A stretch of DNA of 64,000 nt from an uncultured Actinomycetota bacterium (GCA_964415365.1 CAYPYW010000002.1:26264-90263), one strand, 5' to 3'. Counted from the first letter of the stretch, positions 1-40,235 are shown. Notes: generated by a model not told the origin, from the sequence alone. Made by a program: numbers and translations.

Positions 1-1093
1 TCTCTCCCAGTAATTCAGAGAGTTTTGTATTCACGGTGGATTCAACGAAACCTTTCACTTCACTATTCCCCAGCTTTGTTTTGGTTTGTCCTTCAAATTG
101 CGGATTCTTTAATTTGACACTGATAATTGCGGTAAGCCCCTCTCTGATATCTTCACCTAAAAGATTTTCATCTTTTTCTTTAAGTATATTACTGCTGCGG
201 GCATAGTCATTTATAGTCCTGGTAATAGCTCCCTTGAAACCACTCAGGTGTGTTCCACCCTCCGTAGTATTTATATTGTTGGCAAATGAAAAAATACTTT
301 CTGAGTAACCACTGGTATACTGCATTGCAATTTCTACTTCGTGATCATCAACTACATTTTTAAAATATATTACTTTCTTATGCAAAACATCCTTTTTCTC
401 GCACAAATATTTTACAAAGTCCTCCACTCCACCTTCATACTGGTACACTTCTTTCTTTTCCGGCTTTCCTCTTGAATCTACCAGAGTAATCTTTAAACCT
501 TTGTTTAAGAAAGCCATCTCTTTCATCCTGCTGGCCAGTATCTCAAATTTATAATCAATATCTTCAAATATCTCTTTATCAGGGTAAAAAGTAATCGCGG
601 TACCATGAGTCTGAGTTTTTTCACCTTTAACAAGATTGGTAACCGGTTCTCCTCTCTTGAAATCCTGCTTGTAGATGTGACCATCTCTCCTTACTTCAAC
701 ACCCAGTTTTTCCGAAAGAGCATTCACCACAGAAACTCCAACACCGTGCAGCCCACCGGATACTTTATATCCTTCTCCGCCAAACTTCCCGCCGGCATGC
801 AACTTGGTAAGTACTATCTCCACCGCAGGTTTATTAAACTTTTCAACCTTCTTTACTGGTATTCCTCTACCATTATCCACTACAGTTACAGAATTATCCT
901 CATTCAATACAACCAGTATGTTGTCACAAAATCCAGCCATTGCCTCATCTATGCTGTTGTCTATCACCTCATAAATAAGATGGTGCAGGCCTCTGGACCC
1001 TGTGGAACCGATATACATACTTGGCCTTTTTCTGACTGCAGAAAGGCCTTCCAGAACTGTTATATCCTTAGCATCATAACTTGATTTTTTCAA
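1..1093 (-). CDS. gyrB: DNA gyrase subunit B, N-terminal part; the gene runs off the window start. Likely TTG start at 1093
   Basis: Minus-strand translation reads LKKSSYDAKDITVLEGLSAVRKRPSMYIGSTG...HGVGVSVVNALS...YEGG, the GHKL ATPase and transducer motifs of GyrB. GAGGAG lies 6 nt upstream of the TTG. The plus-strand ORF 605..1084 is antisense to it. Confidence 0.9.
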   Translation of the reverse strand, partial: MKKSSYDAKDITVLEGLSAVRKRPSMYIGSTGSRGLHHLIYEVIDNSIDEAMAGFCDNILVVLNEDNSVTVVDNGRGIPVKKVEKFNKPAVEIVLTKLHAGGKFGGEGYKVSGGLHGVGVSVVNALSEKLGVEVRRDGHIYKQDFKRGEPVTNLVKGEKTQTHGTAITFYPDKEIFEDIDYKFEILASRMKEMAFLNKGLKITLVDSRGKPEKKEVYQYEGGVEDFVKYLCEKKDVLHKKVIYFKNVVDDHEVEIAMQYTSGYSESIFSFANNINTTEGGTHLSGFKGAITRTINDYARSSNILKEKDENLLGEDIREGLTAIISVKLKNPQFEGQTKTKLGNSEVKGFVESTVNTKLSELLGE

Positions 1094-29830: not shown

Positions 29831-30077
29831 ATATTTACAGGATAAGTATTATTTTAAAATAATTTTTAATAATTATATTATATTTAAGGCAAAATACCAA
29901 TTACAGTTTATATTAAAACTCAACTTCCTCAGGAATCGCTTTAAATAGAACCGGTAATTGGTAAATCAGTAAACAGTATTATTTTAATTTAATAATTTAT
30001 TATTTTTTTATTTTATAATCCATTCTATTCTATTATAATTATTATCTATCAATATAAATTCAAATTTACCTTAATTT

Positions 30078-31700
30078 ATGTATTTCAAATTAGTTGTTCA
30101 GGTTTTAGGCGGTTTAGCCTTATTTATCTTTGGCATGACCACCTTAACTAACAGCCTCCAAAAAGTCACTTCAAACGGCCTGAAGTTAATGATCAGTATA
30201 CTCCAAAAAAGGCCATGGGCCTCCGTACTGGTTGGGCTTGTAACAACAATGATAATTCAGAGCAGCAGTGCTACCTCAGTGATGACTATCGGATTTGTCA
30301 ATGCAGGCTTGATGGCTTTAAAAGCATCCATAGGAATTATAATGGGTGCAAATATCGGTACCACCATCACTGCCCAGATAATTTCCTTCAATATTACCGA
30401 TGTGCTTTCTTATCCTTTGATAATCATTGGCTTTCTTTTATTTTTCATCAGTAAAAGACGGAGATACAAAAATATCGGAATGGCACTACTCGGCTTAGGT
30501 TTATTATTTCTGGGAATGAATGTAATGAAACTATCACTTGAGCCATTAAAAAGTAACATAGCCTTTAAAAACTTTCTTTTAACCTTTGGTAAAAACCCGT
30601 TCCTTGGCTTGCTTGCAGGAGTAATTATAACATCGACATTGCAAAGCAGCTCTGCAACAATTGGCTTGCTTATCGCACTCGCAACACAGGGTTTATTACC
30701 AATAAGCGCTGCTGTACCAATTCTGTTCGGTGACAATATTGGAACCTGCACAACTGCTCTGATTGCAAGCACCGGAACTACTGTCACAGCCCGTAGAACC
30801 GCATTTGCCCACTTACTATTTAATATACTCGGAACAGGGCTGTTTCTTATATTACTATATGGATTCAGACTTGGTCCATTACTTTTACCCCATATTGGGA
30901 GTACAGTTCCTCACCAGATAGCCAATATGCATACAATATTTAATATCACCACAACAGTAATTTTATTCCCTATGATCGGTTTATTTGAAAAACTGGTTGT
31001 TAAATTATATCCGGGAAAGGATGTAATAGTTCAAAAAAATGCATTATATCTGGATAGCAGATTGATTAATACTCCATCTGTCTCATTGGAGCAGGTCAAA
31101 AAAGAGTTGCTCCGGGTAACCAAAATAGCCCAGAATATGTTAAATCTTTCATATGACAGACTAAATAAAAAAGATGCTGCTATTGAAAAGAAGGTACTCG
31201 ATAGAGAATACGCCGTTGACAGCATTACAGAAGACATAATAAGATATCTTACCAAAATATCTCAAAAATCTCTGGGTCCAAGACTCTCCAATAAACTCAC
31301 TAACCTACTGCATGTAGCTTATGACGCAGAAAGAGCTGCCGACCATACCGAAAGCATACTCTATCTAATGCTGGTAAAGGAAGAGAATAATATGAGTTTT
31401 AGCAAAATTGCTCTCCAGGATCTGGAATTAGCAGCCAATAAAGTCAATCGTCTATTCAACTCCCTGATATCAGGTATGGAAAAAAACAATTTAAACCAGC
31501 TCAAAAAATGTGAAAAAATTGAACTCGAAATAGATCTACTGGTAAAAAGAATCCGAACCTCCCATCTGAAAAGGCTTCAGAATGGTGACTGTATGCCACT
31601 TTCAGGAGTGGTTTTTGCAGATATCATTCTCCATCTTGAAAGAATAGGAGATCTTCTTTACGGAATATCAAGAAATCTCTTAAATATTGAGGAATACTAA
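30078..31700 (+). CDS. Na+/phosphate cotransporter (NptA family) with C-terminal PhoU-like domain
   Basis: GLALFIFGMT and duplicated SSSAT repeats of the Na/Pi-cotransporter II family; soluble PhoU-like C-terminus. Confidence 0.8.
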   Translation: MYFKLVVQVLGGLALFIFGMTTLTNSLQKVTSNGLKLMISILQKRPWASVLVGLVTTMIIQSSSATSVMTIGFVNAGLMALKASIGIIMGANIGTTITAQIISFNITDVLSYPLIIIGFLLFFISKRRRYKNIGMALLGLGLLFLGMNVMKLSLEPLKSNIAFKNFLLTFGKNPFLGLLAGVIITSTLQSSSATIGLLIALATQGLLPISAAVPILFGDNIGTCTTALIASTGTTVTARRTAFAHLLFNILGTGLFLILLYGFRLGPLLLPHIGSTVPHQIANMHTIFNITTTVILFPMIGLFEKLVVKLYPGKDVIVQKNALYLDSRLINTPSVSLEQVKKELLRVTKIAQNMLNLSYDRLNKKDAAIEKKVLDREYAVDSITEDIIRYLTKISQKSLGPRLSNKLTNLLHVAYDAERAADHTESILYLMLVKEENNMSFSKIALQDLELAANKVNRLFNSLISGMEKNNLNQLKKCEKIELEIDLLVKRIRTSHLKRLQNGDCMPLSGVVFADIILHLERIGDLLYGISRNLLNIEEY

Positions 31701-31731
31701 TCAAGCTAATTGATTATAATAAAAAAGTGTT

Positions 31732-32625
31732 CTAGAAACATTCGCTATCTCTCAATCTACAGAATTCACTCTCATACTCAACCTCTATAGTGGAATGCTG
31801 CAGGTTTAAAGTCTCTGCAATTTCTTTAACTTTCCCTTTTATATTAATTATTTCATCTGAAGTTGTGTTATCTTTTACAACAATATGAGTTGTCAGTACA
31901 TTATTTAAACTGTCTATAGACCATATATGAGTATGATGAATATTAACAACCTTATCTATTTCCCAAAGTTTATTTTCAATCTCTTTGATACTCACTCCCA
32001 TCGGAACAGCCTGTAGAAATACAGAAAATGTCCTTTTTAAATTGACTACAACATTATATAGAATATAAATTGTAATTAATATTGACAGTATAGGATCCAA
32101 TACAGGGATATTTTTAAAAATCATTATAATGCTTATTATAAGAACAGCCGTCCAGCTAAGAATATCATCCAGAAGATGTAATGTTATAATTCTCTCGTTT
32201 AAGGATTTTCCCCTTCTGACACACAGTGCAGCAATTCCATTTACCACAACACCCCCTATTGCGAAAAATAGCATCCCTTTCGCATTGGGCTGTTCGGGAT
32301 TGAATATGCGAGGTATTGCCTGAGATAATACGTAAACTGAACCAAGGATCAATACCAGACCATTTATCAAAGCTGCGAGTAATGAATATCTCCTATATCC
32401 GTATGAATACTTCTCATCCTTCTTCCTCTTCGAATATTTCTCCAGTGCCCAGGACAACCCGAGCGAGAAACTGTCCCCCAGGTCATGCAGTGCATCAGAT
32501 ATAATAGCAAGACTATTTGTCCACAGCCCTCCTATTATTTCAACAATAGTAAACCCAAGATTTAAAAAGAATGCTATCCTTATATTTAAAGTACTATCCT
32601 GTTTACTATTGTAGTGTCTGTTCAT
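31732..32625 (-). CDS. Cation diffusion facilitator (CzcD-like) metal efflux transporter
   Basis: HDLGDSFSLGLSW and C-terminal ...HIW...H... CDF motifs. Confidence 0.85.
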   Translation of the reverse strand: MNRHYNSKQDSTLNIRIAFFLNLGFTIVEIIGGLWTNSLAIISDALHDLGDSFSLGLSWALEKYSKRKKDEKYSYGYRRYSLLAALINGLVLILGSVYVLSQAIPRIFNPEQPNAKGMLFFAIGGVVVNGIAALCVRRGKSLNERIITLHLLDDILSWTAVLIISIIMIFKNIPVLDPILSILITIYILYNVVVNLKRTFSVFLQAVPMGVSIKEIENKLWEIDKVVNIHHTHIWSIDSLNNVLTTHIVVKDNTTSDEIINIKGKVKEIAETLNLQHSTIEVEYESEFCRLRDSECF

Positions 32626-32693
32626 CGTATCCTTTGACTTATTTATTTAGATTAATGATTTGAGCAATTATCTCTTAGAGGTATCTTTTTATC

Positions 32694-33881
32694 CTACTTA
32701 ATTTTCTCAGCCAAGTTTATCAAAGCCTCTTTTAAAGCTTTTTTGCTTCTTTCAGATAAGTCCTTTGAAGCAGATTTACTTTTCCGGGATAAATCTTTTA
32801 TAGCATCTCTCAAGGTTCTTTTACTCCTATCAGATAGATCTTTAGTCATAATTATACTTCTTTCAGATAAGTCCTTTGCGACAATTTTACTCCTCCCGGA
32901 TAAATTATCAAAAATATCCTTACTTTTTTCGGATATGTCATCAAAAATATCCTTACTTTTTTCGGATAAATTCTTAAGAGCATCTTTTAGCTCACTGATA
33001 AAAATGTCTTTATTATTAATCACGGCAGGGCAAGAAGATATTCCCCAGATCCCGGGACCGGTATGGGCACTCATAACTGTAGTCACCTCAGACAGGATTA
33101 TCTCATCAATCTTAATTTTACTATCCTCTCTTATCATTTTCTCAAGTTCAAAAGCTGGCTCAATATCGGAACCATAGAAGATACCAATTTTCCTCTTCCC
33201 GGTATAAAAAGGGTCTTTCCTAATCTGATTGTAAAGTTCAACTATGGAATTCCTTTTATTTTTCACAAATTTCTTTAGCTTTACCTTACCATCACCACCT
33301 ATAGTAAGAATTGGTTTAAGTTTTATTGATCTAGATAAAAACTTCTTTAAAAAAGGTGTTCTGCCTCCTCTAAATATATATTCAAAATTTTCGATAGTAG
33401 CAAACAGCCTGTTCTTTCTTATCATAAAATCTATAATGCTATCTATTCTTTCTTTACTTTCACCTCTTTCAACTGCCCTTGCAACTTCTAAAACAATAAA
33501 ACCCATACTGATGGCAGCAGTTTTTGAATCAATAACTTTTATTTCGGCTTGAGGAAAAAATCTCTTAGCTTGATTAGCTGAATTCGAAGTGGAAGATAGT
33601 TTTGAACTAATATGAATAGAGTAAATTAAAGTCTTTTTCTCATTTTCCACTAAATCCCTGTAAACTTTCACAAAATCACCAACAGAGGGTGTAGAAGTAT
33701 GAACTTTTACCCCGCTCTCAAGTTTTTTATACACCTCATCGCTGGTTATCTCTTTTCCCTCAAGATATAATTCCCCCTCAAATCCAACATATAGAGGGAC
33801 TATTTTTATTTTATATTTATTTGCTAACTGCACAGGAATATCGGATGTAGTATCCGTCACTATCGCAATATCTTTCATCAA
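32694..33881 (-). CDS. DegV-family fatty-acid-binding protein with a C-terminal tandem-repeat tail
   Basis: IAIVTDTTSDIP DegV N-terminus. The C-terminal 90 aa are KDLSERSK-type 11-12-aa repeats. Confidence 0.8.
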   Translation of the reverse strand: MMKDIAIVTDTTSDIPVQLANKYKIKIVPLYVGFEGELYLEGKEITSDEVYKKLESGVKVHTSTPSVGDFVKVYRDLVENEKKTLIYSIHISSKLSSTSNSANQAKRFFPQAEIKVIDSKTAAISMGFIVLEVARAVERGESKERIDSIIDFMIRKNRLFATIENFEYIFRGGRTPFLKKFLSRSIKLKPILTIGGDGKVKLKKFVKNKRNSIVELYNQIRKDPFYTGKRKIGIFYGSDIEPAFELEKMIREDSKIKIDEIILSEVTTVMSAHTGPGIWGISSCPAVINNKDIFISELKDALKNLSEKSKDIFDDISEKSKDIFDNLSGRSKIVAKDLSERSIIMTKDLSDRSKRTLRDAIKDLSRKSKSASKDLSERSKKALKEALINLAEKIK

Positions 33882-34094
33882 CTTATCCTCACTCCTTTTG
33901 AGTCTAATTCCATTTTACAATATTTTATATAAAAAAATAGTATCCGTCTAAGTCTGAATTAATTTATTTACTTTACTTTTTAGTAAAGATGGTAGCATTA
34001 AAGAATTTTTTATTATATCATATGTGACAATTAGTATAAGGCAGTCAAAAAACTAATAATCATTAAAATAAACCAAAGTGGTTGGAGGTTTATA

Positions 34095-35135
34095 ATGAAT
34101 TACAGAAGAAACAAATTCTATTTAACCTTAACTATACTTGCTATAATCATAATTTTCATGATTGTAATTCCTCTTTCGGGGTGGGTAAAACAACCAGACA
34201 CTTATCAAACAGTATCTGACTTACCTTCACCAGCAGCAACAGGTTCAAGACCAGTCGCAATTATGGTTGAAAATAGTTTTGCAGCCAGACCCCAATCCGG
34301 ACTTAACCTTGCAGATGTGGTATTTGAAATTGTTGATGAATACGGAATTACCAGATTTACTGCGATTTATAACTCAAACGATGCTCCACAAGTAGGCCCG
34401 GTAAGAAGTACGAGACCTTATTATGCAGAAATTGCGAGGGGCTTCGACCCCATCTATGCTTTTTTTGGTACTTACCCCGAATGCTATGGAGTGATAGAAG
34501 ACATGGGGATGTATGTTCTAAGTGCAATGACAGATAGATCAGGTAACAGTTCAATTACCGGTCAGGCACCTTACTGGAGAGACTGGAGCAGGAGTTCCAT
34601 TCAGGAACATACAGCTTTCATGTCAGTGGCAAAGTTAAAGGAAAAAGCCTTACAGCTTGGTTATCCTCTCGGAGGTAATGGTATTCCATTCTCATATAAA
34701 ACTGATGCACCAGAATCTTCCAGGGGAAATATCACAAACATTTATGTTGATTTTTCCACTCATGCATATGCTCCCAGTGGTTTTAGTTTAAACTATGTTT
34801 ACAATAAAAGCGGTAATTATTACTTAAGGAATATGGGTGGCAAGGCCCACCTGGATTACAACACCGGCCAACAAATCACCGCAAAAAATGTAGTGGTAAT
34901 AGTTACAGATATTCTGGGACCCCTGGATAAGTACGGGCATATGGATGTAAGAACCACAGGAAATGGCTTTGTATATGTCTTCCAGGATGGTAACGTAATC
35001 CAGGGAAGCTGGCAGCGTGGAAGCATATATGAACCTTACGTATTCAAGGACAGCAGCGGCAGAGTAATTTCACTCAATGGTGGTGCAACCTGGATAGCAG
35101 TGGTTCAGAGTGCGGAAAAGGTTGGATATAATTAG
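34095..35135 (+). CDS. DUF3048-domain membrane-anchored protein (YerB-like)
   Basis: N-terminal TM segment followed by ...VMVENS...RPQSGL...VGPVRSTRPYY pattern. Confidence 0.6.
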   Translation: MNYRRNKFYLTLTILAIIIIFMIVIPLSGWVKQPDTYQTVSDLPSPAATGSRPVAIMVENSFAARPQSGLNLADVVFEIVDEYGITRFTAIYNSNDAPQVGPVRSTRPYYAEIARGFDPIYAFFGTYPECYGVIEDMGMYVLSAMTDRSGNSSITGQAPYWRDWSRSSIQEHTAFMSVAKLKEKALQLGYPLGGNGIPFSYKTDAPESSRGNITNIYVDFSTHAYAPSGFSLNYVYNKSGNYYLRNMGGKAHLDYNTGQQITAKNVVVIVTDILGPLDKYGHMDVRTTGNGFVYVFQDGNVIQGSWQRGSIYEPYVFKDSSGRVISLNGGATWIAVVQSAEKVGYN

Positions 35136-35139
35136 GTAA

Positions 35140-36092
35140 TTATCCCTTGACATCAAGTATAAATAATGCTATCATAAAAATCCATACTTGTCAATAGGGG
35201 ATAAAAATGAAAAAAGAAAAATTTACAATTAAAGACTTTAACAAGATGTATCCAGATGACAATTCTTGTCTTAATGAGATATTTAAAAACCGTTATGGAG
35301 ATTTAAAAGTCTGTCCTGGGTGTAAGAAGAAAACCAATTTCTATAAAGTAAAAGGACGTAAAGCTTATGCTTGCCAGTACTGCGGTTACCAGATTAGCCC
35401 TTTAGCAGATACTATATTCCATAAATCCTCAACGAGTTTGAGAAACTGGTTTTATTCCCTGTATCTATTTTCTGTATCTAAAAATGGAGTATCTGCTAAG
35501 GAACTTGAAAGACAGCTTGGAGTTACCTATAAATGTGCTTGGAGAATTGCAAAACAAATTAGATTGCTATTTAAACAGAATAAGAAACTCTTATCTGATA
35601 TAGTGGAAATTGACGAAACATATATCGGTGGCAAACATAGAGGTAAAAGAGGCAGGGGTTCAGAAAATAAAACTTCTGTTGTGGGACTTGCTCAAAGGAA
35701 GGGAACTATAAAAGCTAAAGTTACCGATAATACAAAATCATCTACAATTAAAGCTATCATAAAGGATAATGTTGAAATTGGAATTAATCTAGTTACAGAT
35801 GAATATAGAAGTTATAACGGATTAGGCAAATTAGGATTTAAGCATTTTACAATCAATCATGGAGATGAAGAATGGGTTAGTGGTATTGCTCACGTAAATA
35901 CTATTGAGGGCTTCTGGTCACAACTAAAGAGGTCAATTAATGGGACTTACCATTGCGTTTCCCCGAAGTATCTGCAACATTACGTTGACGAGTTTGTTTA
36001 CCGCTATAATTATAGGCTTTCTTCTTTCCCGATTTTTTTAGATCTTGTTTTATCGGCTGGGAAGCAAGTTTAATTATGTGCTTAAAATCATC
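35140..36092 (+). mobile_element. Compact IS1595-family insertion sequence; ends approximate
   Basis: A single transposase ORF fills the gap between flanking genes, 71 bp to the left and 20 bp to the right. Inverted repeats were not confidently resolved. Confidence 0.4.
35207..36073 (+). CDS. IS1595-family (ISXO2-like) transposase
   Basis: N-terminal zinc ribbon CPGCKKK...CQYCGY, then YKCAWRIAKQIR and DETYIGG DDE-region motifs. Confidence 0.8.
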   Translation: MKKEKFTIKDFNKMYPDDNSCLNEIFKNRYGDLKVCPGCKKKTNFYKVKGRKAYACQYCGYQISPLADTIFHKSSTSLRNWFYSLYLFSVSKNGVSAKELERQLGVTYKCAWRIAKQIRLLFKQNKKLLSDIVEIDETYIGGKHRGKRGRGSENKTSVVGLAQRKGTIKAKVTDNTKSSTIKAIIKDNVEIGINLVTDEYRSYNGLGKLGFKHFTINHGDEEWVSGIAHVNTIEGFWSQLKRSINGTYHCVSPKYLQHYVDEFVYRYNYRLSSFPIFLDLVLSAGKQV

Positions 36093-36093
36093 T

Positions 36094-36885
36094 TTATTTA
36101 TTTTTTTCTTTTCCATTTACAAATTTTATATTAATATTTGTATCTTTAAAGTTTTCTAAATAATTTTTTAATTCAGCTTCACTTTTAAATCCATCTTTGG
36201 TTAATATAGATAATTGCGTTTTCCCGCCACATTTATTATCAATACTTTTTACTTCCTCGATAGCAAATAGTAGCGGATTAACTATATCTTTTATGCAGGG
36301 TGAATCGTCATTAAAATTCCAAGCCCTCGATAATATATATTCCGCTAATAATTTACCCGTTCCAATAGATTTATGAGTTATTATGGGTACTACTGTTCCA
36401 TTGGAGGAAACATAAAATAAGCCTAATCTTTCATCACTTTTTGAATGAGCTCCTATTATACAAGAAAAATTCATTTTTTCACAAAGCATTAATATATCAA
36501 ATGGATTAATTTTTATATCAAGTTCCTTCAATCTTTTAACTAAATATCTTTCCCCTATTTTATTTGTTGAACTTTCACACAATAATTTAAATTTTTCTAG
36601 CTCCCATGTTTTTAAATATTCTTTTTTGATTTCTTCCAACGCAAATAGAAAATATGCTGGTTCTCCAGCACCAGCAAAACTAAAAATTATATCTTTACTA
36701 TTAATATCAGAATTTTCAAATATCTTGGGTACATTTAATATTTTTGTTCCATTATCTTTTGAAGTAGCCTTACTATCTGACGCAATAATTAATCCATCTT
36801 TACAATAAACTGCTGAAATTATTGTCATTGGATTACTTTCAGTTAGATAATAATCACTTTCATATCTTACATTTTTATTATACAT
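36094..36885 (-). CDS. Proteasome beta-subunit-type Ntn-hydrolase homologue (Anbu/BPH-like) with a 20-aa propeptide
   Basis: After the propeptide, TIISAVYCKDGLIIASDSKATS...K places Thr1, Asp17 and Lys33/34; FAGAGEPAYF and IGTGKLLAEY match the G-x-x-G and GSG segments of the fold. Confidence 0.5.
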   Translation of the reverse strand: MYNKNVRYESDYYLTESNPMTIISAVYCKDGLIIASDSKATSKDNGTKILNVPKIFENSDINSKDIIFSFAGAGEPAYFLFALEEIKKEYLKTWELEKFKLLCESSTNKIGERYLVKRLKELDIKINPFDILMLCEKMNFSCIIGAHSKSDERLGLFYVSSNGTVVPIITHKSIGTGKLLAEYILSRAWNFNDDSPCIKDIVNPLLFAIEEVKSIDNKCGGKTQLSILTKDGFKSEAELKNYLENFKDTNINIKFVNGKEKNK

Positions 36886-36963
36886 ATCTCAACCTCTGAT
36901 TATTAATCCTTATATATTTTGTTATAATATTTATTAATCATAAAAGGATGAAAGGAATTTAAA

Positions 36964-37125
36964 ATGGCAAATTATAGCACGACAAAAGCATTACTTTTAA
37001 GAGGTTATTCTGGTTTGGGTTCATCAACACCCGGAGCTCTTGATGAAATTATAGAAACTATAATTCAACAAGCCTCAGCAATAAAAGAACTGAATGAAAG
37101 GGTTATGAACCTTGAGAGAAAATAA
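36964..37125 (+). CDS. Candidate small protein, 53 aa
   Basis: ATG has AAGGA upstream; a plus-strand terminator hairpin follows about 125 nt downstream. No homology recognised. Confidence 0.25.
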   Translation: MANYSTTKALLLRGYSGLGSSTPGALDEIIETIIQQASAIKELNERVMNLERK

Positions 37126-37250
37126 TTCATCCCCTTCTCTTCATCTGTAAATGCCTAAGTCTAGTCATGGTAATCCTATCAATTTCATCATATAGAAATA
37201 ATGCCAGTTTTCTTTTAATAAAATTTTTGATTATAATAAATGGATTACAT

Positions 37251-37282
37251 GAGGTGTTGCTCATTTATAACACCTCGCTTTT
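37251..37282 (+). terminator. Rho-independent-type terminator hairpin on the plus strand
   Basis: Perfect 8-bp stem GAGGTGTT/AACACCTC with a 10-nt loop, followed by GCTTTTGG. Confidence 0.4.
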
Positions 37283-37340
37283 GGGGAAGTGCCCCCGATG
37301 ATGTACTTGACGTGGAGGTATAATCGCCTATAATTAACTT

Positions 37341-37751
37341 CTAAAGGAGTCTTTTTTCTCCTTCAATCTTCTTTACATCAGTTATATCCTGGCTGACTTC
37401 CAGGCAACCGACATATTCATTCATACTATCATAAACAGGAAAGTATCTTATATATATAAGCCGGTTATTTAAATTAATCCAGAACTCAGCCACTTTCCTT
37501 TTTTTAGCTTTGAAATCATCAAGTACCTGCTGTACTTTATCCAGACTCTTTTTAGGATGACAATTTTGCACCTTTAAGCCAATTATGGATGGAGACCTCT
37601 TGAATATTCTGGTGTTCAGCTTATTAAAATATCTAACCTCATCATCCTTACCAATAAAAGTCACATCAATAGGCAAGGTATCGAATATAAGTTCAATTTC
37701 CTTCGCACTCACATTTCCGGTTTCAAATTTTAAAGTCTCATTCCCGGGCAT
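37341..37751 (-). CDS. PAS-fold domain protein
   Basis: ELIFDTLPIDVTFIGKDDEVRYFN... resembles the PAS-like sensory domain seen in DUF438-type proteins. Confidence 0.45.
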   Translation of the reverse strand: MPGNETLKFETGNVSAKEIELIFDTLPIDVTFIGKDDEVRYFNKLNTRIFKRSPSIIGLKVQNCHPKKSLDKVQQVLDDFKAKKRKVAEFWINLNNRLIYIRYFPVYDSMNEYVGCLEVSQDITDVKKIEGEKRLL

Positions 37752-37785
37752 AGTAAACTCCTTACAAAATAATTTCCCGTAAACT

Positions 37786-38166
37786 TTACTCAGTATCCTT
37801 TGCTTCTAAATTAATGCGCCACATTGCCTGTGCTTTCCTCCAGTGAAATGCAAACAATGGAATCGCTATAATGACAAGAAGCACTCCCCTTAGCAAGTCT
37901 TTAAACGCTATATCTTTTTCACTCTGAATGGAAGCATTTAACTCCTCCTCAGCTAACTGATCTATTTCCTCTCTGGATAAGTTTTGATACTGTTCTGCCG
38001 AATACATACTTATTATGCTGGATTTTGTCATATATGTTGTAGGTCTTACATACTCTGCAGCACCGCCGTAAACCATAACCAACCCCACTATAAAAATTAC
38101 AATAGCAATAATGCAGACAATATATAAGTAAATTTCCCTAAAATAAACTCTCCTTGCCATTTTCAA
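37786..38166 (-). CDS. Hypothetical membrane protein (2 TM)
   Basis: Two hydrophobic helices bracketing an acidic soluble loop; no motif recognised. Confidence 0.4.
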   Translation of the reverse strand: MKMARRVYFREIYLYIVCIIAIVIFIVGLVMVYGGAAEYVRPTTYMTKSSIISMYSAEQYQNLSREEIDQLAEEELNASIQSEKDIAFKDLLRGVLLVIIAIPLFAFHWRKAQAMWRINLEAKDTE

Positions 38167-38349
38167 CCTCCTTGATTATAAAAACTTATTATAAATTATA
38201 GCTTTAAATTTGATAGATTCCAATTTAAAGATGATTTTGATGATTTAAAATAAAAAGCTTAATAAAATTTTTACCCACGTATTTCTTTAAAATAACTTAA
38301 AATAGTCTTTTTGACTTAAACTTCAGTGCTCTGGTAAAATTAAAGACAT

Positions 38350-38427
38350 GGGCGGTTAGCTCAGACTGGTTAGAGCGCTGCGTTGACATCGCAGAGGTCA
38401 TTGGTTCAAATCCAATACCACCCACCA
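38350..38427 (+). tRNA. tRNA-Val (anticodon GAC), CCA encoded
   Basis: Cloverleaf: acceptor GGGCGGT/ACCACCC with one mismatch, D-arm GCTC..GAGC, anticodon stem CTGCG/CGCAG, loop TTGACAT, T-arm ATTGG-TTCAAAT-CCAAT, 3' CCA. Confidence 0.85.
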
Positions 38428-38470
38428 TACTTCACTCCTGACAACAATAATATATTAAAGAATGTTTCAT

Positions 38471-39220
38471 TTAAATGCCCTTGCTAAAAGTGAATTTAAT
38501 AACGCCTCTTTTACAGTTATCCACGCATGTCCCGCACAGTATGCACTCGGAATTTTCCATTCTGTCACTCTTCACCATATCATTGACGTCAAGACTCATA
38601 GGGCAATTCTTTGTACAGGTCATGCAATCAGTACATTTTTCCTTATTTGTCTTAAGTCTCAGTGAGGGCCACTTAAATAGATTTCTAAATTTTCTTCCTC
38701 CAATCATAAAAGGAGACATCCAGCATACATAATGACATACAGCACGCTTCCCCACAGCAAATGAAAGAATTATTACGGTAATGACTACAATGAGATACAT
38801 AAATAGTCCATATACATCAGATATGGAGAATCCATAAGTGGTCTGATAGAAGAAGTCAACTTTTCTAAACCCTCCTGCTGTTACTGCCATATATGTTATT
38901 ATTGCAATCCACGGTATCCATATGATATATCTTATCCAGTTATATTTGTTATTTACCGGTTTGTTTCTTGCTACAAAACTCGCTTCCTGTATTCCCGCAA
39001 GAGGGCAGAACCAGGCACAGAAACCCCTGCCGAGAAATAGTGCGGATAAAAAAAGTACAGCAAAAACAATAAAACTGCCCGTTATTACTCCTTCTGAAGC
39101 ACCCATGATGATAAGATAAGGCGAGAAGTAATAGAAGATTGCCGGCAGCAGTAAAAAAGTAACAAGAATTATCCCTTTTCTTATGTTTTGTCTTTTACTC
39201 ATTTTTTCCCTCTTCCACAA
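38471..39220 (-). CDS. Membrane-bound polyferredoxin (NapH/MauN-like 4Fe-4S binding protein)
   Basis: CAWFCPLAGIQE, then C-terminal CTDCMTCTKNCP and CILCGTCVDNC ferredoxin motifs, with TM helices. Confidence 0.7.
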   Translation of the reverse strand: MWKREKMSKRQNIRKGIILVTFLLLPAIFYYFSPYLIIMGASEGVITGSFIVFAVLFLSALFLGRGFCAWFCPLAGIQEASFVARNKPVNNKYNWIRYIIWIPWIAIITYMAVTAGGFRKVDFFYQTTYGFSISDVYGLFMYLIVVITVIILSFAVGKRAVCHYVCWMSPFMIGGRKFRNLFKWPSLRLKTNKEKCTDCMTCTKNCPMSLDVNDMVKSDRMENSECILCGTCVDNCKRGVIKFTFSKGI

Positions 39221-39407
39221 TTTTTTTTATTTGCTTATTTGATTTTAGACCCAACCTGAGACCCTCCCAGGGAAGTTCAAGATTATAACAGTTAGAATTT
39301 TAAAACAAATTGAAAAAAAATCTATTATTTTATAAGTTGCAATAATTAAAGTTAAAGATGTAAAATCAATAGTATATTCTTAAGTTCATAAGTAGACTAA
39401 AGGGAAT

Positions 39408-40235
39408 ATGATAGAATTACCCGAAGCTATTGTGATTTCCCGGCAACTCAATGAAACTATAAGCGGGAAGAAAATTAAAAACGTCATTGCTGCACAAAGC
39501 CCCCATAAATTCGCCTGGTATCATGGCGACCCTCACAAGTATCATGATTTACTTGTCACCAAAGAGATTGGCATAGCAAATGCTTACGGCAGCTGGATTG
39601 AAATAAGTGCCGGAGATGTAATGATTTCCTTTTGCGAAGGAGCAAGCCCCCGTTTCCATGCAGAAAATGAAAAACGTCCTCAAAAACACCAACTTCTTAT
39701 AGAATTTAAAGATTTAACAGCCATCAGTGCATCAATCCAGATGTATGGTGGACTTTTCTGCTACAGAGAAGGGGAACTTAAAAATGAATGCTACCTTCAG
39801 GCAAAAGAAAAACCTTCACCGCTGTCAGATCAATTCAATAAGGCATACTTTCTTAAGATTCTCTCTTTGCCCGGAGTAAACGGACTCAGTGCTAAGGCTC
39901 TTCTTGCAACCAACCAGAGGATCCCCGGTCTTGGTAATGGTGTACTTCAGGATATCCTCTTTAATGCAAAAATCCATCCAAAGAGAAAAGTAGACACCCT
40001 TACAGAAAGTGACAGAGAAATTCTATTCAACTCAATAAAATCCACCCTTTCAGAAATGGTTTCTTCAGGAGGAAGAGATACAGAAAAAGACTTATTTGGC
40101 AATCCGGGTGGATATAAGACCAGAGTCAGTAAAAATACCGCAGGTAAGTACTGCCCCAGATGTGCCAGCATAATTAAAAAAGAGGCCTACATGGGTGGAA
40201 GTATATACTATTGCACAGGCTGCCAGAAATTTTAA
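39408..40235 (+). CDS. fpg: Formamidopyrimidine-DNA glycosylase / Nei family (Fpg/MutM)
   Basis: N-terminal MIELPEA for PELPEV catalytic Pro2/Glu3; C-terminal zinc finger CPRC...CTGC. Confidence 0.75.
   Translation: MIELPEAIVISRQLNETISGKKIKNVIAAQSPHKFAWYHGDPHKYHDLLVTKEIGIANAYGSWIEISAGDVMISFCEGASPRFHAENEKRPQKHQLLIEFKDLTAISASIQMYGGLFCYREGELKNECYLQAKEKPSPLSDQFNKAYFLKILSLPGVNGLSAKALLATNQRIPGLGNGVLQDILFNAKIHPKRKVDTLTESDREILFNSIKSTLSEMVSSGGRDTEKDLFGNPGGYKTRVSKNTAGKYCPRCASIIKKEAYMGGSIYYCTGCQKF

Follow-up and report, generated by a model that had tools for sequence, protein, structure and literature searches.

How does a bacterial gene for a proteasome-like hydrolase come to face, end against end, the transposase gene of an insertion sequence (IS)? 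This question is raised by a 64-kb stretch of DNA from an uncultured low-GC member of the Actinomycetota (hereafter the window, in which all coordinates are counted unless another locus is named). The open reading frames (ORFs) of an IS1595-family transposase and of a 263-amino-acid (aa) N-terminal nucleophile (Ntn) hydrolase of the proteasome beta type are convergent there, with stop codons only 20 bp apart. Both belong to the same element. Positions 35135-37328 form one 2,194-bp transporter IS of the IS1595 family, that is, an IS carrying passenger genes. Its inverted repeats and an 8-bp target-site duplication enclose the transposase gene, the protease gene and a 53-aa ORF, which thus make up a single transposable unit. 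An earlier interpretation (the sequence-only reading) had seen in the hydrolase gene an orphan host gene beside an unrelated compact IS. This view fails on the position of the repeats and of the duplication, and is also contradicted by the finding of the same unit, with independent duplications, in three other loci. The search for the element ends was prompted by a relative from another Actinomycetota metagenome-assembled genome (MAG), the protein P0003, which is 40% identical to the window protease and whose gene is likewise convergent with an IS1595 transposase gene. The element and its parts are as follows.

35127-35134: left copy of the 8-bp target-site duplication, TATAATTA, read directly
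35135-35159, plus strand: left inverted repeat (IRL), at the transposase end, 25 nt, GGTAATTATCCCTTGACATCAAGTA
35207-36073, plus strand: IS1595-family DDE transposase gene, 288 aa, with an N-terminal zinc ribbon, apparently full length (Pfam and NCBIfam)
35937-36116, minus strand: possible small basic "tail" ORF, 59 aa, +1 frame, a diverged counterpart of those in related elements, of uncertain status
36094-36885, minus strand: passenger protease gene, 263-aa Ntn hydrolase of predicted proteasome-beta fold (profiles, alignment and model)
36862-36895, minus strand: invariant 34-nt block, AGGTTGAGAT-ATGTATAATAAAAATGTAAGATAT, spanning the ribosome-binding region and the first eight codons (MYNKNVRY)
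36896-36963: intergenic region from which the protease gene and the 53-aa ORF diverge, probably a promoter region
36964-37125, plus strand: 53-aa ORF inside the element, divergent from the protease gene (ORF list)
37126-37303: stretch without recognised feature except a doubtful 45-aa ORF
37304-37328, minus strand: right inverted repeat (IRR), at the cargo end, 25 nt, GGCGATTATACCTCCACGTCAAGTA read inward
37329-37336: right copy of the 8-bp target-site duplication, TATAATTA

The element reads, from left to right, inverted repeat, transposase gene on the plus strand, convergent protease gene on the minus strand, small ORF and inverted repeat. With the protease gene and the 53-aa ORF lying between the repeats, it corresponds to the definition of a transporter IS. 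The duplication is perfect, and its 8 bp are the length expected for the IS1595 family, while the two repeats are complementary at 19 of their 25 bases. The terminus GGTAAyTrTmCC is common to the window element and to those of the loci L001, L005 and L006 (L numbers designate loci, P numbers proteins). A terminus of the form GGnnATTAT presumably resembles that of the ISNwi1 subgroup. The transposase matches PF12762 (1.3e-44, profile positions 2-153 of 153), PF12760 (7.2e-08) and NF033547 (212 bits for a cut-off of 75), and is 43-49% identical to the transposases of L001, L005, L006 and L012. IRL contains a -35-like TTGACA, and a promoter-like site TTGACA-17-TATCAT faces the transposase gene. 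At the other end, IRR and the target duplication combine into a promoter-like site that points outward, TTGACG-16-TATAAT (37307-37334, plus strand, 11 of 12 bases matching), and that would transcribe antisense to the neighbouring PAS_10 gene. Hybrid promoters formed by IS ends are well known. Part of the divergent intergenic region (AATATTATAACAAAATAT...) is common to other IS1595-type elements. No terminator-like site was found between the convergent transposase and protease genes, and an Rfam scan of 34900-38500 returned a tRNA-Val only.

Three further elements of this kind could be delimited, each with its own perfect 8-bp duplication.

L001 element: 2,527 bp, duplication TAATATTA
L005 element: 3,422 bp, duplication TTACTTAT
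L006 element: 2,577 bp, duplication TAAATAAT

The order repeat, variable small cargo, protease gene, convergent transposase gene, repeat is common to all four. More widely, an IS1595 or IS1-like transposase gene adjoins the gene of a family member in 10 of 12 informative independent loci (L007 and L009, too short to judge, were left out of the 12). It is of the IS1595 type in the window, L001, L005, L006, L012, L010 and L020, the last three being interrupted by contig ends, and of the IS1-like type (NF033558, 3.6e-13 and 2.1e-15) in L004, L013-L018 and L019. The protein P0156 (L020), only 26% identical to the window protein, is still encoded next to a transposase. In the IS1-like element of L013, perfect 18-bp terminal inverted repeats surround a small ORF, the protease gene and the transposase gene. 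Copies 100% identical to this element are found with two different left flanks in different samples, so this unit has entered at least two different sites. Among annotated plasmid copies, the closest IS1595 element, with a transposase 43% identical to that of the window, is labelled only "IS1595 family transposase" and has no protease passenger. A hidden distant protease in this plasmid element was rejected by hhalign (probability 0.2%), as was the same idea for a 417-aa neighbour in L021. The window element and an L001-type element, whose proteases are 40% identical, were recovered from sister runs (L002, SRR14802573; L011, SRR14802574). A single microbial community thus seems to harbour two versions of the transposon, each from a bin labelled as Actinomycetota.

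The nature of the passenger emerges mainly from its family. Taken alone, the window protein scores 20.5 bits with PF00227, for a gathering score of 22.4, and gives a weak match to the PHROG "HslV family" (2.3e-5). A word-indexed search of 5.8 billion clusters with this single protein yielded only two relatives, and a 5-sequence alignment query of a species-representative genome collection found only one MAG, which was already known. An exhaustive profile search of 1.84 billion representatives gave 416 relatives at E<=1e-3, 64 of them at E<=1e-10. PF00227 is matched by 59 of 60 aligned relatives, and the likeness of the family profile to archaeal 20S beta subunits reaches E = 2.6e-25. Residues T21, D37, S38, K54, G74, G175, G177, K213 and G220-G221 are invariant or nearly so, and the family positions align with Thr1, Asp17, Lys33, the oxyanion glycine, the G-S-G loop and the Asp166/Ser169 region of beta subunits. 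The predicted nucleophile is Thr21, with Asp37, Lys54, Gly74, Thr176, Asp216 and Cys219 as active-site equivalents. Thr/Ser1, Asp17 and Lys33 are unchanged in all 14 tabulated proteins. Within the wider family, Ser replaces Thr at the nucleophile position in P0013, P0018, P0020, P0034 and P0040.

An AlphaFold2 model built from 65 sequences (predicted local distance difference test, pLDDT, 87.9; predicted template modelling score, pTM, 0.85) has the alpha-beta-beta-alpha Ntn fold of the proteasome type. Residues 1-20 are disordered in this model and the fold starts at Thr21; helices 76-92 and 96-121 are followed by an extra helix, 128-136, at the pore-loop site and before the next strand. From profiles, alignment and model together, the passenger is thus predicted to be a proteasome-beta Ntn fold with a complete Thr1/Asp17/Lys33 active site. 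The sequence-only reading had placed both ORFs correctly, as the ORF list confirms, and its assignment to the proteasome-beta-type Ntn hydrolases is borne out by fold, catalytic residues and family profile; the structure prediction that it had proposed as a check returned indeed an Ntn fold.

The 20-codon extension that the same reading had described ahead of the nucleophile is also present, and its start is conserved in an unusual way. The block AGGTTGAGAT-ATG TAT AAT AAr AAT GTA AGA TAT is identical, except for one A/G, in seven loci, of which five have an IS1595 backbone and one an IS1-like backbone, the last lying beside a DnaB-type helicase gene. Within codons 2-8, identical residues share their codons in 93% of pairs, compared with 52% over the remaining codons; Val pairs agree in 21 of 21 cases in codons 2-8 and in 12 of 43 elsewhere. 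These pairs are not independent of one another, but the contrast is large. Beyond codon 8, conservation is of the ordinary coding type (DYYL.E.NPMT), with synonymous changes. The block occurs once in the window, matches a sigma-70 layout (TTGAGA-17-TAAGAT) and includes TGTATAAT. RNA folding of the 5' region revealed no notable structure (z = 0.32), which leaves an RNA-structure explanation of the block unsupported, and a scan of viral contigs for the block gave no match. A function as promoter, as translational operator or as anchor for recombination is conceivable.

The junction between extension and fold is also particular. Gly is typical at position -1 of the nucleophile in self-cleaving beta subunits. 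Here this position is held by Met or Val in 14 of 14 tabulated proteins; in the wider family, Met, Val and Leu predominate. Its codon is ATG or GTG in all loci whose DNA was read. An internal start followed by methionine aminopeptidase is thus an alternative to a propeptide. Maturation may thus proceed by removal of a true 20-residue propeptide, or through an internal transcript and start codon and subsequent loss of Met. According to Fuchs et al. (2021, PMC8665760), beta subunits and HslV are otherwise the only proteasome-like proteins with propeptides.

The protease body does not evolve in step with the element that carries it. In L001, L005, L006 and L012, the transposases are 70-90% identical, the proteases only 26-31%; the window protease is closest to that of L001 (40%), and the window transposase is the most divergent of the set. 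Co-divergence of transposase and protease had been expected and was rejected, since their identities are uncorrelated (correlation -0.42, not significant). A sliding-window DNA alignment of L001 and L006 locates the discontinuity. The transposase gene and the small ORF upstream of its 3' end are 80-92% identical, while the protease body falls to 27-58%, which is near background for AT-rich DNA. One 60-nt bin, containing the protease promoter, the ribosome-binding site and the first codons, rises again to 85%, and the cargo further left is unrelated. Transposon backbone and protease body are evolutionarily decoupled, with the catalytic residues, the 34-nt block and the small basic ORF kept constant. 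The simplest reading is that divergent protease alleles would have been repeatedly exchanged between elements, or would have diverged very fast, with catalysis kept by selection.

The small ORF travelling with the conserved transposase half of the element encodes a basic tail peptide. In L001, L005, L006 and L012 it has a length of about 46-50 aa; from its own ATG, which lies among the last protease codons in the +1 frame, it reaches its stop within the 3' end of the transposase gene (L001 10770-10913; L005 element 2278-2430; L006 element 1541-1681). It shares the motif DYTxDxFxKDLxK..P.K...K.K.SSxKT, and this lysine-rich ORF is preceded by an A-rich run, e.g., GAAGAAAAAAATTAA in L001. The tail peptide is fused in frame to the C-terminus of the protease in P0002, P0004 and the L007 protein, and the existence of both split and fused forms suggests that protease and tail work together. 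A tblastn search with the L001 tail found matches in L005, L006, L007, L010 and L012 and did not find the window copy, so the status of the latter is uncertain. The window ORF has the same position, frame relation and partial motif similarity as the tail ORF of L001, L005 and L006; it overlaps the last protease codons and, antisense to the transposase gene, continues into the 3' end of the latter. The tail is absent from the IS1-like versions. In L007, the protease gene (909-1844), which is of the MYNKNVRY type with a fused tail, lies directly downstream of a gene for a DnaB-type helicase C-terminal domain (9-707, plus strand, 4.9e-47), which hints at a plasmid or phage context.

The remaining cargo is variable. 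A gene for a NYN-domain protein, a PIN-like nuclease (PF01936), is divergent from the protease gene in two of the four fully delimited elements, L005 (1088-1618, minus strand, 8e-22) and L006 (3448-3939, minus strand, 1e-12), the two proteins being about 32% identical over 71 residues. Unrelated small ORFs occupy this position in the window and in L001. No homolog of the 53-aa window ORF was found, no similarity across elements was detected among the small divergent ORFs (53, 72, 92 and 94 aa) and the 73-aa ORF of L001, and comparison of the small ORFs with Pfam and NCBIfam gave nothing beyond a weak DUF7508 match. The family member of L008 (1716-2429) has no propeptide and no nearby transposase, and lies about 800 bp from a gene (353-907, minus strand) with weak HEPN (RiboL-PSP) and DUF4145 matches. 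Genes of the HEPN/DUF4145 type are common in abortive-infection systems.

The surroundings of the element in the window comprise the following genes.

34095-35135, plus strand: DUF3048 gene (ORF list and domain match)
37341-37751, minus strand: PAS_10 protein gene (domain match)
37786-38166, minus strand: DUF5671 membrane protein gene (domain match)
38350-38427: tRNA-Val(GAC)

The element was inserted, with duplication of 8 bp, in the short spacer between the convergent core genes DUF3048 and PAS_10. After conceptual excision, the two stop codons are a few bases apart. The DUF3048 stop was rebuilt by the insertion, as the last two bases of the duplication and the first G of the element now form TAG in place of TAA. 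According to the sequence-only reading, the whole block from DUF3048 to the membrane protein was an islet ending at the tRNA-Val gene. In the relative L022 (DUF3048 88% identical), DUF3048 and PAS_10 are convergent and adjacent, with flanks of about 90% DNA identity and no similarity to the IS. Another relative (L023/L024) keeps the upstream order of the window, Na/Pi cotransporter - CDF - DegV - DUF3048. No direct repeat overlapping the tRNA-Val gene was found within 30000-40000, nor any integrase among the ORFs at 31-42 kb. The islet fails on these grounds. Between relatives, the element itself is present or absent at this site; the flanking DUF3048 and PAS_10 genes and the genes upstream are syntenic. 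The L022 spacer (1054-1178) is about 120 bp longer than the reconstructed pre-insertion site, so that L022 offers an unoccupied locus but falls short of an exact empty site; some sequence may have been deleted during the insertion or before it. L011, considered as an empty-site candidate through its PAS protein, was rejected, as it carries the same insertion in a contig from a sister sample; no record of the DUF3048 protein of the window itself was found, and L022 was reached through DUF3048 homologs.

The names borne by DUF3048 homologs, of the Humimicrobiaceae or "Ca. Hydromicrobium" type, place the host among the low-GC uncultured Actinomycetota. On the 4,898-bp contig of L022, neither a DUF5671 gene nor a tRNA-Val gene is found by PAS_10, and a HisKA_7TM-GGDEF-HD gene stands in their place, so the region downstream of PAS_10 varies between relatives independently of the IS. 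Upstream, the DegV-family gene of the window (32694-33881, minus strand) has a C-terminal extension of about 110 aa made of 33-nt (11-aa) tandem repeats (32741-32971), with five SEKSKDIFD-like copies of 61-81% identity to the reference copy. The DegV homolog of L023 has 421 aa, compared with 395 aa in the window, and the repeat region may thus vary in length.

Among known systems, the closest are the transporter ISs (tISs), in which passenger genes lie inside the repeats and which were described for the IS1595 family (Siguier, Gagnevin and Chandler 2009, in the account given in PMC3129680). TnCentral lists tISs for the IS1595 and IS66 families only (10.1101/2021.05.26.445724). The window element is like them in its single zinc-ribbon IS1595-type DDE transposase, its short GG-terminated repeats, its 8-bp duplication and its internal passengers. 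It is unlike them in carrying as passenger a predicted proteasome-fold peptidase, whose family is also carried by IS1-like elements; no annotated plasmid copy exceeds 43% identity with the window transposase. In the literature covered, which did not include ISfinder or the clustering data of Fuchs et al., no description was found of a proteasome-fold passenger in a transporter IS.

On the protease side, Fuchs, Alva and Lupas (2021, PMC8665760) described 22 new groups of bacterial proteasome homologs, with no informative genomic context for any of them; transposons are unmentioned in that article, from which the word stem "transpos" is absent. The passenger family is like these homologs, especially PHI and WPH, in its predicted proteasome-like fold, in Thr/Ser1, Asp17 and Lys33, in its profile-level closeness to archaeal beta subunits, and in having no AAA+ partner. 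It is also like PHI in the extra helix that follows H1/H2 at the pore-loop site, a likeness in this single feature. What sets it apart from those groups is that it recurs in transposons and has an N-terminal extension of 20 residues that is strongly conserved. Proteasome homologs on mobile elements have precedents in the phage-borne PPH and AAH (PMC8665760). From Anbu, the passenger family is distinguished by a sequence identity of only 13-17% and by its gene neighbours. Anbu's usual operon partners are ATP-grasp, alpha-E and transglutaminase genes. None of these is found within about 5 kb in the window or in the related loci with listed genes, where transposases are found instead; the sequence-only reading was thus right on the absence of Anbu and HslU partners. 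To our knowledge, Anbu has not been reported on transposons. The passenger is also unlike HslV, having neither an adjacent hslU gene nor a compact subunit of about 175 residues without C-terminal elements. Thr1 of HslV is usually exposed by removal of the initiator Met. A persistent non-transposase gene in small transposons is also known from TnpB in IS200/IS605, with an unrelated protein and chemistry; this is an analogy only, from which no role of the protease in transposition or retention is taken.

What the protease does for its element can be proposed with decreasing confidence, from an active peptidase, through expression in the service of the element, to a role in genetic conflict. Taken as a whole, we consider it probable, with appreciable room for doubt, that the locus is an IS1595 transporter IS with an active, element-serving protease of the conflict type. 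The passenger would be an active Ntn peptidase whose Thr21 must be exposed, either by autolytic loss of residues 1-20 or by use of an internal ATG and methionine aminopeptidase. Lacking an ATPase partner, it would have peptides or unfolded or loosely structured proteins as substrates. It would be expressed from promoters inside the element and kept for its service to the element, not for host housekeeping. In the mechanism that we prefer, a transposon-encoded protease would degrade proteins of the host or of rival elements, and the basic peptide inherited with the transposase may be a targeting or adaptor piece. A conflict-type role is suggested by the conserved core in a variable body, by the nuclease co-cargo and by the rarity and patchiness of the family. 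With this conserved core, the NYN co-cargo and the HEPN-type neighbour, the family resembles, by analogy, genes of genetic conflict (defence, counter-defence and element maintenance). A more specific proposal, which we regard as possible and put forward tentatively, is that protease, basic peptide and 5' block would be an integral module of the IS1595/IS1-like lineage, rather than incidental cargo, serving as a proteolytic weapon against proteins of host defence or of rival elements, or as a regulator of the transposase through the adaptor peptide encoded by the backbone, with the body exchanged or diversified and the core kept.

Several observations weigh against the element-serving, conflict-type protease. 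The distant members of L008 and L021 have no nearby transposase, and the link may thus hold for some clades only; three of the ten positive loci depend on transposase fragments at contig ends, of 32 to about 90 residues. P0010 has Ala at the nucleophile position and may be inactive, and position 129, which is Ser in proteasomes, is T, S, H, V or C among the members. Activity, maturation and oligomeric state of the protein are predictions. Low identity between proteases may result from exchange of old alleles and need not mean positive selection. The conflict role is drawn from an analogy of patterns, with NYN or HEPN neighbours in only three loci. The PADLOC defence models matched no protein of the block, and tblastn of the protease against plasmid and phage records gave no match.

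The main rival is regulation of transposition, in which the protease would act on its own transposase or on a host factor required for transposition; with a shorter-lived transposase, it would set the frequency of transposition or impose action in cis, and the tail would tether it to the transposase or to the ends of the element. The fixed position of the protease gene beside the transposase gene in two transposase families speaks for it, as do the tail ORF, which overlaps the 3' end of the transposase gene and is inherited with it (80-92% DNA identity, compared with 27-58% for the protease body), and the three proteins in which tail and protease are fused; the convergence of the two genes, with 20 bp and no terminator-like site found between them, would also allow antisense interference. 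Recognition of its own transposase, however, predicts a co-divergence that is not seen, a protease gene is missing from most IS1595 elements, the closest annotated plasmid copy among them, and the IS1-like versions have no tail. We also know of no IS that encodes a protease for the control of transposition, which counts against this view. Regulation is thus weakened by the lack of co-divergence and kept open by the backbone-linked tail peptide, and we hold it to be rather unlikely. If the protease were instead ordinary adaptive cargo, of benefit to the host through, e.g., ATP-independent clearance of damaged proteins or peptides, or phage defence, it would ride on its carrier much as resistance genes do on transposons and would join the passengers of IS1595 transporter ISs described as unrelated to transposition, and the chromosomal contexts of L008 and L021, without transposase, would be in keeping with this. 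A host-beneficial enzyme is nevertheless expected to be conserved and fixed, while this family is hypervariable and very rare (three clusters in the word-indexed search, and the 64 members at E<=1e-10 among 1.84 billion); the protease is absent from the close relative L022, and no defence model is matched. This makes an ordinary host benefit unlikely.

It is very unlikely that the passenger is not a protease at all, being either a connectase-like ligase or transpeptidase, or a silent scaffold like proteasome alpha subunits. The proteasome-like family does include a ligase, connectase (PMC8665760), position 129 is variable, and the extra helix at the pore-loop site could stand in the way of ring assembly, a point raised by Fuchs et al. 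for PHI (PMC8665760). The window protein is unlike connectase, however, with neither its missing first helix pair nor its two-helix insertion between strands S3 and S4. Finally, an Anbu/BPH-like orphan host protease that lies by chance beside an IS in a tRNA-Val islet, as first supposed, hardly seems tenable any more. The tRNA-Val gene is indeed about 1 kb from the element, and the G+C minimum of the window (0.263) falls in the 1-kb bin 36001-37000, which contains the protease gene. Against chance stand the repeats and duplication enclosing both genes and the recurrence of the pairing in ten loci, and against the islet the adjacency of DUF3048 and PAS_10 without the element in L022, the upstream synteny, and the lack of an att-like repeat or integrase.

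Transporter ISs and bacterial proteasome homologs are each known; their combination was not found described in the literature covered. One clade of uncharacterised proteasome relatives gains here its first recurring genomic context, as cargo of small DDE transposons of two related families. The transporter ISs, in turn, gain a conserved non-transposase gene family, and the carrying of passengers is extended to IS1-like transposons. The evolutionary signature of this family is unusual: the backbone is conserved, the body of the enzyme is hypervariable, and the start region is kept unchanged down to its nucleotides. In terms of annotation, such genes belong to the mobile element and not to host proteostasis. 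The compact 2.2-kb unit makes questions on transposition, on retention of the element and on phage or plasmid resistance testable. If the module proposal were true, a member of the proteasome family would for the first time be seen to act in transposon biology, and one branch of the uncharacterised bacterial proteasome homologs would gain its first functional context.

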